The notes under the pieces are model-generated. The model was not told the origin of the DNA. It did not search any database and saw only the letters and a list, made by a program, of their open reading frames with translations. DNA of 64,000 bases from an uncultured bacterium (lineage in GTDB: Bacteria > Planctomycetota > UBA1135 > GCA-002686595), in assembly GCA_943787795.1 (NCBI GenBank), contig CALSNU010000001.1, positions 512,001-576,000 on the forward strand, written 5' to 3'. Shown one piece after another: positions 11,154 through 15,348 of this stretch (its first letter is position 1; the number at the start of each line of letters is the position of its first letter). The position numbers and the translations under genes were made by a program.

Positions 11154-13208
11154 ATGACCCTCAAGAAGCGCCTCATCAAGCTGGGCTGTATCGGCCTGCT
11201 GCTCCTCTCGTTCATCGGCTACTTCGCCTTCTCGACGCTGCTCTTCTCGCCCCTCGAGGGGCGGTTCAACGCAGACGTCGCGGGGCTGATCCCGAGGGAT
11301 GTGGACCTCTACGTGGCGAGAGCCGAGCTCCGGACCGCCTTCACCGACTTTCCCGACCTTGCGGTCATGGAAGAGCTGGAAGGTAACGATGGGTATCAAG
11401 CGCTGGTGACCTCCTCCGAGTGGGCGGACTTCGCGCAGGAGCAGCGGATCGAGGCGCTCCTGGCTGACGTCCGCGGGCAACTCGGACAGCTGCCTGCCGG
11501 GCTCGACCTCCTCGACATCATCGGCGGGGAGGACTTCGCCGTGGCCGCCAATTTCACGGGGCGCTCCTTCGAGGACGCGGAGTGGGCGGCCTATGCGCGG
11601 CTCTCCCTGTGGGGGCGCGGCGCGGTCTCCGGGCTCGAGTATCCGGGGCTGCTCGGGCTCGAAGATCAGGGCATCACCGTTGAAGGGGCTGGGGGCTTGA
11701 AGACGATCAAGTCCGCGCAGCTTCCGCGACCCATCCACGTTGCGCGGATCAAGGATGTCGCGATCATCGGCACCTCCCGTGATCTCGTCGAGCGTGCGGT
11801 CCAGCTCGAGGCGACCGGGTCCAAGGACTCGCTCCTGCTCGCCGCGCCGTACAACGACTCGATCCTGTCTGTGGAGCGCGACGACAAGCAGCGTGACTTC
11901 GAACTGCAGGTTGACCTGCGCGAGCTGCGGGAGTCGTACGGGCTGACCGAGGGGCTCTTGAAGAAGGACGACGAGCGCTTCACGCCGGCGTTCCTCGCGC
12001 GGCTCCTGCCGCTGGACGCCATCCGTCGAGTGCTCGGGGTCGTGGACTTCGAGGAGGGTGTCGACATCGACCTGAGCGGCGACTTCTCCTCGGAGCTGAT
12101 GACGGCGGCCCAGGAGCGGATCTACCGCTTCAAGGGCTTCGACCAGGATGAGGTGCTCGAGGTCGCCCGCTTCGCCCCAGACGACAGCACGCTCTTCGTC
12201 TACATCCGTGGGCCGATCGCGACCATGCTCCAGATGGTGGTGGACTCCCTCGAGCCCGCGGCGCGGAGCAACCTTGAGGGGTCGATCAAGCAGATCGGCG
12301 TCAACAGCATCGCGGACCTGATCGGGATCCTCGATAGCTCGCTCGTTGACCGGGTGGCCTTCATCGCTCGCCCGAATGACTGGGGCTACGAGTCAGACAT
12401 GGAGCTCGACCCCGAGTCAGGTGAGATGGTCTACACCGGGCCACCGAACGACGGGGCGCCGGTCTTCGCCTGGGCCGTCGTCACCTGGATGGCGGACGAG
12501 GCAAAGCTGGTCGACCTGCGTGAGAAGGTCACCGTCGCGGGCTCTCGGATCGGCATTCAGGGGGCGAAGCCTGGTCAGTCCGGGTTCTTCAAGAAGCCCA
12601 TCGGTGGCGGCCTCACGGTACGCGAGTACTGGTCCCAGCTCATCCCGGGGACCGGGCACCTCGCGTCTCTCATGTATGGAGACAACCTGCTCCTCTCGAA
12701 TCGCTACGCGCTCATCGACTCGCTGGTGAGGAATCGCAACGGGCAGTCTGCTGCCGTGCCACGCCTGTCCAACAGCAGGGATTTTCAGGTGGCCCTGATC
12801 GACTCTGTACCCAGCGCCAACGTGCTCGCCTGGCTGAACCCCGCCACGGGCAGCGCGCTGCTAAGAGACCAGGCACGCCTCGACGCAAAGAACCGGATCA
12901 CCCGCTCCATTGACTACGCGACCAAGCGGCGCGAGGTGGAGCGGGACGTCCTGTCGAGGGTCTTCGGTGGTCGGCCGCGCGCGCAGTTGACGGCGGACGA
13001 TATTCGCCGGCTGGACGACCTGGTCGACCAGCAGCTTGTGTCCTTCACCGAGCAGATGGTCGCGTCGAACATGCCGCGGGAGCTGGAGGAGGTCCAGCGC
13101 CTCAAGACCTACCTGGACTCGGTGAGGTCCGTGCTGACGATGATCCGCCTCTCCCCGAAGGACTTCGAGTTGACCATCCGAGCCGACGTACCGATCGACG
13201 GGGAGTGA
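11154..13208 (+). CDS. Membrane-anchored extracytoplasmic hypothetical protein (DUF3352-like architecture)
   Basis: N-terminal TM; two repeats beginning AGLIPRDVDLYV and ARFAPDDSTLFV; 684 aa with coding-like composition. Confidence 0.7.
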   Translation: MTLKKRLIKLGCIGLLLLSFIGYFAFSTLLFSPLEGRFNADVAGLIPRDVDLYVARAELRTAFTDFPDLAVMEELEGNDGYQALVTSSEWADFAQEQRIEALLADVRGQLGQLPAGLDLLDIIGGEDFAVAANFTGRSFEDAEWAAYARLSLWGRGAVSGLEYPGLLGLEDQGITVEGAGGLKTIKSAQLPRPIHVARIKDVAIIGTSRDLVERAVQLEATGSKDSLLLAAPYNDSILSVERDDKQRDFELQVDLRELRESYGLTEGLLKKDDERFTPAFLARLLPLDAIRRVLGVVDFEEGVDIDLSGDFSSELMTAAQERIYRFKGFDQDEVLEVARFAPDDSTLFVYIRGPIATMLQMVVDSLEPAARSNLEGSIKQIGVNSIADLIGILDSSLVDRVAFIARPNDWGYESDMELDPESGEMVYTGPPNDGAPVFAWAVVTWMADEAKLVDLREKVTVAGSRIGIQGAKPGQSGFFKKPIGGGLTVREYWSQLIPGTGHLASLMYGDNLLLSNRYALIDSLVRNRNGQSAAVPRLSNSRDFQVALIDSVPSANVLAWLNPATGSALLRDQARLDAKNRITRSIDYATKRREVERDVLSRVFGGRPRAQLTADDIRRLDDLVDQQLVSFTEQMVASNMPRELEEVQRLKTYLDSVRSVLTMIRLSPKDFELTIRADVPIDGE

Positions 13209-13518: not shown

Positions 13519-13662
13519 TTGGATCCCCTGCGTCTTGGATCCCCTGCGTCTTGGATCCACGGCGTCTTGGATCCACTGCGCGGAGGCATACGGCGCGGAG
13601 GCATACGGCGCGGAGGCACACGGCGCGGAGGCACACGGCGCGGAGGCACATCGTGCGGAAGC
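13519..13662. repeat. Two abutting tandem repeats: 16-bp TTGGATCCCCTGCGTC x~4 and 15-bp GCGCGGAGGCA(T/C)ACG x~5.5
   Basis: Units read directly at 13519, 13535, 13551, 13567 and at 13578, 13593, 13608, 13623, 13638; no spacers. Confidence 0.9.
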
Positions 13663-13775
13663 AAGCCCGGGCCCGTCCGCCGAGCCCGTCCGCTTGGCCC
13701 GTCCGCTGGACCGACCTGCCGCCCCTTTGAGGCACAGGGTCCAAGCAAGAAGGCGCGTGAGGCTTCACCTTGCGA

Positions 13776-13796: not shown

Positions 13797-13883
13797 TGGT
13801 GCCCGGAACTGGAATCGAACCAGCACGGGTATTATCCCACCAGATCCTTAGTCTGGCGCGTCTACCAATTCCGCCACCCGGGC
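13797..13883 (-). tRNA. tRNA-Leu, anticodon AAG
   Basis: GCCCGGGTGGCGGAATTGGTAGACGCG-CCAGA-CTAAGGA-TCTGG-TGGGATAATACCCG-TGCTGGTTCGATTCCAGT-TCCGGGC-A-CCA: long variable arm, A73 discriminator, encoded CCA. Confidence 0.95.
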
Positions 13884-13905: not shown

Positions 13906-13934
13906 AATTGCCGCGGCATCCTTCTGCTTGTCAA
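13906..13934 (-). promoter_or_regulatory. Putative sigma70-type promoter of the tRNA gene
   Basis: Perfect TTGACA at 13934-13929 on the minus strand, with only a weak -10 (GCAATT) 17 nt downstream. Confidence 0.4.
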
Positions 13935-14118: not shown

Positions 14119-15348
14119 ATGTCCCAACTCCGTGGCCACGCGCTCATCGGTCAATCCGGCGGCCCCACCGCAGTCATCAACCAGAGCCTCGTCGGGCTCG
14201 TAGAGAGCTGCGTTGAGCACCCGGACATCACGGGGGTCTACGGCGCCCTGAACGGGATCCAGGGCATCATCGAGGAGCGCCTGATCGACCTCGGCCGCGA
14301 GTCCCGCGAGGAGCTTGAGCGGGTCGCCATGACGCCTGCTGCGGCCCTCGGCTCCGTCCGCAGGAAGCCGACCGCGGAGGCCTGCCGGCGCGTCCTCGAC
14401 GTGTTCAAGGCCCACGACATCCGGTACTTCTTCTACGTCGGCGGGAACGACTCGGCGGAGACGGCCCACCTTCTCAACGAGGCCGCCCTTGAGATCGGCT
14501 ACGAGGTCCGCCTCTTCCACGTCCCGAAGACCATCGATAACGACCTCGCCGGCTGCGACCACACCCCCGGGTTCGCTTCCGCGGCGCGCTTCGTTGCCCA
14601 GGCATTCATGGGCGATGACCAGGACAACCGAAGCCTGGGCGGGGTGAAGATCAACGTGATCATGGGGCGTCACGCCGGGTGGCTGACTGCTGCGAGCCGG
14701 CTCGCGCGCCGCCACGAGGGAGACGGACCTCACCTGATTTACCTCCCCGAGGGAGTCTTCGATCGGCAGGAGTTCTGCGACCGGGTCGAGGAGATGCTCC
14801 TGAAGCACGGACGCTGCCTGGTGGCCGTCTCCGAGGGCATCCATGACGCCGAGGGCAAGGTCATCGCCAGCGGCACCGAGGTGGACAGCCACGGCAACAT
14901 TCAGCTCTCGGGAACCGGCGCCCTCGGCGACTACCTCTCCGAGCTGGTCAAGGCCAAGGTCTCGGCGGCCAAGCGCGTCAGGGCGGACACGTTCGGCTAC
15001 CTGCAGCGTAGCTTCTTCGGGGTCATCTCCGAGCAGGACGCGCTCGAGGCCCGCGAGGTGGGCCGGGCCGCCGTTCGGGTCGCCACATCGGGCGACTGCC
15101 AGCACGGCTCACTGGCCATCCAGCGCGGGACCAATGAGGGGACGTACGAGCCGCTCTACGTGGTGAACGACCTCTCGGTCGTGGCCGCAGCGACCCGCCA
15201 TGTACCCGAAGAGTTCATCGAAGGTTCAGATGATGTCTCGAGTGCGTTCGTGGAGTGGGCGACGCCGCTGGTCGGCGCGCTCCCCGTGCCCGGGCGCCTC
15301 GCGAGCCACCCGGTCACGCCGAAGACTGGCGCGACTCAGCTCAGCTGA
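14119..15348 (+). CDS. pfp: Pyrophosphate-dependent 6-phosphofructokinase
   Basis: GQSGGPTAVIN, GGNDS (Asp marks PPi specificity), PKTIDND, MGRHAG, FGYLQR. Confidence 0.9.
   Translation: MSQLRGHALIGQSGGPTAVINQSLVGLVESCVEHPDITGVYGALNGIQGIIEERLIDLGRESREELERVAMTPAAALGSVRRKPTAEACRRVLDVFKAHDIRYFFYVGGNDSAETAHLLNEAALEIGYEVRLFHVPKTIDNDLAGCDHTPGFASAARFVAQAFMGDDQDNRSLGGVKINVIMGRHAGWLTAASRLARRHEGDGPHLIYLPEGVFDRQEFCDRVEEMLLKHGRCLVAVSEGIHDAEGKVIASGTEVDSHGNIQLSGTGALGDYLSELVKAKVSAAKRVRADTFGYLQRSFFGVISEQDALEAREVGRAAVRVATSGDCQHGSLAIQRGTNEGTYEPLYVVNDLSVVAAATRHVPEEFIEGSDDVSSAFVEWATPLVGALPVPGRLASHPVTPKTGATQLS

Follow-up and report, generated by a model that had tools for sequence, protein, structure and literature searches.

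The window, that is the whole stretch of 64,000 nucleotides analysed here, originates from the genome of an uncultured planctomycete (G000, genus g1) and contains a single tRNA gene, which encodes a leucine tRNA with the anticodon AAG. With an adenine at the wobble position, this gene raises the question how the CUN leucine codons are read in this genus. We consider it probable that it encodes the ordinary CUC/CUU leucine tRNA of the family, in which the anticodon would have changed from GAG to AAG, and that A34 is deaminated to I34 by the resident TadA. The resulting IAG anticodon would read CUC, CUU and CUA in a genus in which Leu(TAG) was undetected in 16 of 18 genomes, and CUG would be read by Leu(CAG).

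The tRNA-Leu(AAG) gene and the base at position 34

The gene has a length of 87 nt and was called tRNA-Leu(aag) by ARAGORN; against Rfam RF00005 it scored 53 bits (cut-off 29). Its anticodon arm, read from 13856 to 13840, is CCAGA-CTAAGGA-TCTGG, giving C32 U33 A34 A35 G36 G37 A38, and both A73 (13800) and the CCA end (13799-13797) are encoded (Table 1). The first-pass annotation, which had described an intact class II leucine tRNA with an A34 anticodon, A73 and CCA, was exact in this respect. Minimum-free-energy folding did not yield a cloverleaf (z -2.4) and was uninformative. The TTGACA reported upstream by the same annotation is present, yet it is exact in only two of the 21 family loci compared (G000 and G006), with CTGACA standing at roughly the same place in five further loci of the genus, and no good -10 element was seen after it. 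Three short tandem arrays (a 16-mer x3.9, a 15-mer x5.1 and a 13-mer x3.2) occupy positions 13519-13709, between the gene of a 684-aa protein and the 3′ end of the tRNA.

Table 1. Coordinates of the features discussed; positions are those of the window unless stated otherwise.
Feature	Position	Strand	Basis or remark
tRNA-Leu(AAG) gene, class II, A73 and encoded CCA	13797..13883	-	ARAGORN, Rfam RF00005, sequence
Anticodon arm	13840..13856	-	positions 30-40 (13853-13843) equal those of tRNA-Arg(ACG) of G000 except position 35
Anticodon AAG	13847..13849	-	A34 at 13849, predicted inosine site; A also in relatives and RNA-library contigs
-35-like TTGACA, putative promoter element, weak -10	13929..13934	-	comparison of family loci
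PPi-dependent phosphofructokinase (pfk) gene, divergent neighbour, locus marker	14119..15348	+	NCBIfam NF010675, synteny
Gene of 684-aa protein, convergent neighbour, locus marker	11154..13208	+	synteny
tadA (P0001, 173 aa)	G000 C4:47589-48107, outside the window		HAE and PCxxC intact; best PDB hits all TadA

The A at position 34 is not an assembly error, as the gene is conserved in relatives and contigs from independent RNA libraries agree. An identical 87-mer is found in G004, G006, G009 and G015, and near-identical genes occur in other members of the genus as well as in a GTDB record of a Planctomycetota bacterium (L275), where the gene has the same two neighbours. A DNA search of 41 genomes yielded 30 loci. 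In 21 of these, which belong to genus g1 or to one of five further genera in the family, the best ARAGORN match was Leu(AAG), and in nine it was GAG or TAG. By pattern, AAG was matched in 16 of 18 genomes of the genus, both misses being assemblies of about 600 contigs, and in 75 of the 121 genomes of this planctomycete family; most relatives have AAG at the orthologous locus. Contigs of three independent marine RNA-library runs, each from a different study (X9, X11 and X14), contain A and no other letter at 13849. Two checks named in the first-pass annotation, the base at this position and the presence of Leu(AAG) in related genomes, hence both bear out the A. The sequencing runs containing the stretch were mostly marine. 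A sequencing error at this base, or a silent pseudo-tRNA, is refuted by the conservation of the gene across the family and deserves practically no weight, with the independent reads in agreement and this tRNA being the sole reader of CUC. Its expression as a mature tRNA is likely, as judged from the genomes.

The same contigs, together with those of a fourth RNA-library run (X1), exhibit no A-to-G change at 13849. This would fit an explanation in which A34 stays largely unmodified and the CUN box is read by relaxed 'two out of three' wobble. Assembled contigs cannot show mature tRNA, and as these contigs run past the tRNA ends they possibly represent precursor or DNA; X1 has no listed piece covering the whole tRNA.

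Replacement of Leu(GAG) and remodelling of the anticodon arm

The locus is marked by its two neighbours. The product of the pfk gene matches NF010675 with 437.8 bits (cut-off 273). The 684-aa protein did not match any NCBIfam family, and its nearest Atlas cluster is mostly from Planctomycetota; its gene is fixed beside this tRNA across the order, and similar Atlas clusters include those of DUF3352 and of YfaA/DUF2138. One or both of the two genes were found at all 18 GAG loci of the family and at 12 of the 13 AAG loci examined, the remaining one being too short to tell. As both kinds of tRNA gene sit between the same two genes, the AAG and GAG genes are orthologues.

ARAGORN called only AAG, CAG, CAA and TAA leucine tRNAs in G000, and profile searches built on the TAG, GAG and AAG genes of relatives recovered those four genes and nothing else. 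Leu(GAG) was found by neither method in G000, nor was it found in the single-contig genome G012. A genome-wide look for missing isoacceptors, as suggested with the first-pass annotation, thus revealed the absence of both Leu(GAG) and Leu(TAG) from the assembly of G000. Low-threshold ARAGORN calls of GAG in coding DNA of this genome were pseudo-calls unsupported by the profiles, and the single hit left by a stem-and-T-loop filter did not have the shape of a tRNA. Within the family, 75 genomes matched the AAG pattern, 32 the GAG pattern and 14 neither (n = 121), and the two never occur together as real tRNAs; GAG-pattern matches in G054 and G128 were not tRNAs and were dropped. The 36 AAG genomes examined in other lineages likewise gave no GAG match. 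In this family, tRNA-Leu(AAG) replaces and excludes Leu(GAG).

Five bases of the arm switch together (C31 to A, U32 to C, G34 to A, U38 to A and G39 to U). Positions 30-40 read GC-TTGAGGT-GC in all 18 full GAG genes of the family and GA-CTAAGGA-TC in 34 of 34 locus calls of AAG genes; for tRNA-Arg(ACG), the normal TadA substrate, 71 of 72 locus calls gave GA-CTACGGA-TC (some genes being counted twice in both sets of calls). The remodelled leucine arm therefore differs from the arginine arm at position 35 only. In the wider list of pattern matches, GC-TT-GAG-G (C31-U32) was present in 32 of 32 GAG genes and GA-CT-AAG-G (A31-C32) in 73 of 75 AAG genes, the remaining two carrying GA-TT-AAG-G. The loop CUAAGGA (C32-A38) fits YUAMGRA, the motif reported for the TadA of Streptococcus pyogenes (PMC11472039). 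On gene comparison, it seems to be mainly the tRNA that has adapted; the loop it shows to TadA would be the normal arginine loop apart from base 35. The 32-38 pair of a tRNA tunes ribosome binding, and as some Leu(TAG) arms also carry C32-A38 and A31-U39, the remodelling could be ribosome tuning and not TadA mimicry.

The number of switches was estimated from an RpoB tree of 98 genomes, which leaves out family genomes that had no usable rpoB or were not fetched, and from an IQ-TREE analysis of 44 genomes. In both trees, there are four places where GAG clades are nested in AAG groups, and the AAG genus g25 is nested in a GAG clade. Parsimony requires five changes from a family ancestor with AAG and seven from one with GAG, and the AU test rejects a single AAG clade (p 1e-14) as well as a single GAG clade of the family (p 1e-7). 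Going by these trees, the anticodon switched at least five times within the family; the direction of the switches is tentative, as the deep nodes are weak. AAG was found in none of 13 genomes from other families of the order.

Reading of the CUN box

CUC makes up 55.2% of the 136,376 leucine codons in 3,036 predicted genes of G000, followed by CUG (36.7%), CUU (4.1%), UUG (3.1%), CUA (0.8%) and UUA (0.1%). This count confirms the earlier impression, gained by eye, that CTC is very frequent. The idea that this might be a main decoding tRNA also held: with Leu(GAG) and Leu(TAG) missing from G000 and CUC being the commonest leucine codon, tRNA-Leu(AAG) is almost certainly the main leucine decoder, and some 60% of all leucine codons would fall to it. 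Apart from the arginine box, which has A and C readers, the other four-codon boxes of this genome all have G, U and C readers.

As CUC accounts for more than half of the leucine codons, an unedited A34 tRNA is hard to explain. An unedited AAG/G37 tRNA is reported to favour CUU over CUC by 87:13 in E. coli (PMC11066159), which is the opposite of the 55% CUC and 4% CUU observed here. CUC use is also no lower in AAG than in GAG genomes: in a homology-based comparison of 57 genomes sampled by 5-80 kb, the median share of CUC in CUC+CUG was 52-60% and 44% in AAG groups and 51% in GAG genomes (p 0.61), and in orthologous rpoB it was 49.5 versus 51.3 (67 AAG and 22 GAG genomes). Once adjusted, CUU use appeared slightly raised with AAG (odds ratio 1.29, rank test p 0.049; in rpoB 1.61, p 0.35), although such statistics overstate, as the genomes are related. 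On the other hand, E. coli is reported to tolerate A34 tRNAs in four-fold boxes (10.64898/2026.05.15.725136), and 17 of the at least 120 AAG genes listed from a GTDB scan keep a GAG-like TT-AAG-GG/GT loop, which would make them candidates for an unmodified A34. The loop of the window gene, however, is Arg-like and not GAG-like. A largely unmodified A34 therefore appears unlikely here, and deamination of A34 is the likely course.

CUA, the third codon assigned to the inosine tRNA in our proposal, occurs 1,058 times in G000, spread over 801 of its 3,036 predicted genes. A Leu(TAG) match was present in 98 of the 121 family genomes and missing from 23; 56 of the 75 AAG genomes had it, and it was missing from 19 of these 75 versus two of the 32 GAG genomes, with the genomes being related and the assemblies incomplete. 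In the genus, both pattern and BLAST searches found TAG in only two of 18 genomes (G001 and G007), in neither case at the usual locus of the family. The single-contig genome G012 has exactly four leucine genes (AAG, CAG, CAA and TAA) among 43 Rfam tRNA hits, and a relaxed TAG pattern retrieved nothing from it and from four other genomes of the genus. TAG was also not found in G061 (one contig) and G082 (two contigs). The site which holds TAG in G018, G059 and G140 lies mid-contig in G000 and contains no tRNA. A purge of CUA after the loss of TAG was not seen: 12 TAG-less genomes use this codon about as often as their other A-ending codons would predict (odds ratio 0.97).

These observations speak against an alternative in which I34 reads CUC and CUU, and CUA is read by a missed Leu(TAG) or by a modified or C-to-U edited Leu(CAG). 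Assemblies do drop tRNAs, as the TAG-less genomes include GAG members, and the assembly of G000 (84.9% complete) is without an elongator tRNA-Met, which is present in G004 and G015, so that its own missing genes prove nothing alone. Some TAG genes, moreover, suggest that it can be favourable to have a dedicated reader of CUA: those of G001 (L114) and G019 (L115) have a Leu(TAA) backbone, the latter lying adjacent to TAA, and that of G024 (L123) is a tandem copy of the AAG gene. By their sequences, all three look re-made from other isoacceptors. The TAG gene of G007 belongs to a foreign-looking array (His, Lys-CTT, Leu-TAG, Val, Asp and Trp; G007:C9, L113), whose coding DNA has a GC3 of 83%, compared with 98% in rpoB of G007, and which may be contamination or a transferred island. 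All in all, a separate CUA reader seems quite improbable for the genus, and reading of CUA by the tRNA with inosine is likely. G000 also contains tilS and a tRNA-SeC (C3:34220-34319).

TadA and the distribution of Leu(AAG) in bacteria

The TadA of G000 reached 138 bits against NCBIfam NF008113, just under the cut-off of 150, and is the only TadA-like gene product in this genome at E<1e-15; a tadA hit was obtained in 116 of the 121 family genomes. The gene is flanked by tRNA-Arg(ACG) and tRNA-Ser(CGA)/Ser(GGA) (C4:47263-48340, L001), and Arg(ACG) is a neighbour of tadA throughout the order. For an orthogonal AAG tRNA in E. coli, about 15% editing is reported with A37 and none with G37; editing was abolished when position 32, 37 or 38 was changed, and reading of CUA lay below detection (PMC11066159). 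As the E. coli enzyme edits that little, our proposal assumes a permissive TadA. Such a case is reported for S. pyogenes, whose TadA, unlike that of E. coli, edits Leu(AAG), fully so in vivo (10.1101/2023.09.19.555891; PMC11472039).

In an alignment of 60 AAG and 28 GAG family TadA sequences, no column separated the two groups (best total variation 0.65, at residue 171), which could also be expected if A34 were left unmodified. Lys-Phe-Gly (residues 130-132), following the D/N108-equivalent position, is common to P0001 and the S. pyogenes enzyme. As it is present in ten of ten other-family TadAs of the order and missing from most other AAG lineages, it can be permissive at most. Arg69 occurs in 84 of 89 TadAs of the family, compared with Glu in ten of ten outgroup sequences; like Lys-Phe-Gly, it is only a lead, as GAG members and PDB 2a8n have Arg there too. 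The first-pass annotation had offered I34 through a TadA of broadened specificity, or unmodified A34. From this, I34 is favoured by the genomic evidence; the broadened specificity found no sequence signature in the enzyme, whereas the arm of the tRNA changes with the anticodon.

Leu(IAG) formation by TadA is proven in Lactobacillales (S. pyogenes, S. mutans and Oenococcus oeni). There, too, AAG replaces and excludes GAG, the loop fits YUAMGRA and tadA is present. Unlike in Lactobacillales, the present case concerns Planctomycetota, a genome of 70% GC and a demand for CUC, with repeated reversals to GAG inside one family and no large synonymous recoding seen; the arginine and leucine loops differ here at 35 only, and those of S. 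pyogenes at 37 as well (PMC11472039). Lactobacillales also keep Leu(UAG), and CUA reading by inosine is stated to be 'not required' there (PMC13249217). The gene-level features of that system are present, and the differences concern the phylum, the GC regime, the repeated reversal and the loss of TAG. An arrangement with an A34/I34 tRNA for codons ending in U, C and A and a C34 tRNA for those ending in G is known from the bacterial CGN box with tRNA-Arg(ICG) and tRNA-Arg(CCG). G000 has this gene pattern in both its arginine and its leucine CUN box, with the same enzyme predicted to act on both; the latter differs in amino acid, in the class II tRNA and in A35 instead of C35. Eukaryotic tRNA-Leu(IAG) likewise carries I34 on a leucine CUN tRNA (predicted here), formed by the heterodimeric, sequence-independent ADAT2/3 (10.1101/2022.06.16.496122), in contrast to the one TadA-like gene of G000. 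Leu(AAG) genes have also been reported in the low-GC Prochlorococcus and Mycoplasma (PMC13249217); the Prochlorococcus genome checked keeps Leu(TAG), unlike the genus studied here.

The first-pass annotation placed Leu(AAG) mainly in some Firmicutes, and published accounts give a similar picture, with almost all AAG genes in Bacilli, where UAG makes CUA reading unnecessary (PMC13249217), and similar taxa elsewhere (10.64898/2026.05.15.725136; PMC8007984). The placement in Firmicutes is too narrow, as Leu(AAG) extends far beyond them. The GTDB scan yielded at least 120 loci, all Leu(AAG) by ARAGORN, and among the matches listed are 24 Lactobacillales, 14 Verrucomicrobiales, seven Synechococcales, seven Cloacimonadota or Fermentibacterota and many Clostridia, as well as Prochlorococcus. 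The YT-AAG-GA loop is present in 103 of the at least 120 genes listed, from many phyla. The list (L233-L352) also includes Akkermansia, Hydrogenedentota, Synergistota, Actinomarina, Enterousia and Fermentibacteria. Eight of 36 AAG genomes checked in other lineages had no TAG match. Within the phylum, AAG was matched in 30 of 401 genomes, which include several members from each of at least four families. The main texts of PMC13249217, 10.64898/2026.05.15.725136 and PMC8007984 do not mention Planctomycetota, and the literature listings searched contained no report of Leu(AAG) in this phylum or of AAG with TAG loss, although supplementary genome lists could contain such cases. In IMG/VR, 79 viral contigs (L034-L112), many of them large phage contigs, match the Leu(AAG) pattern, with ARAGORN calling the gene in 66; published statements say that phages lack such tRNAs, and some of these matches may be host DNA at prophage edges.

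The wider reading, to which we lean slightly, is that in this free-living, GC-rich genus the CUN box is run like the arginine box, with one inosine tRNA as sole reader of CUC, CUU and CUA, that the family flips between complete GAG-type and Arg-mimicking arms without a matching change in TadA, mimicry by the tRNA being enough to recruit an ordinary TadA, and that Leu(IAG) arose many times across bacteria. In the family, sister clades have either AAG or GAG at a single locus, which switched at least five times. This makes testable how a homodimeric TadA accepts a second tRNA, by mimicry of the arm or by change of the enzyme, and whether, with inosine, a U34 tRNA can become dispensable to a bacterium in a box other than that of arginine. 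In contrast to Bacilli, where CUA reading is redundant, the genus would be one in which I34:A3 reading is essential. For these genomes, codon-adaptation models based on tRNA genes would mis-score the commonest leucine codon.
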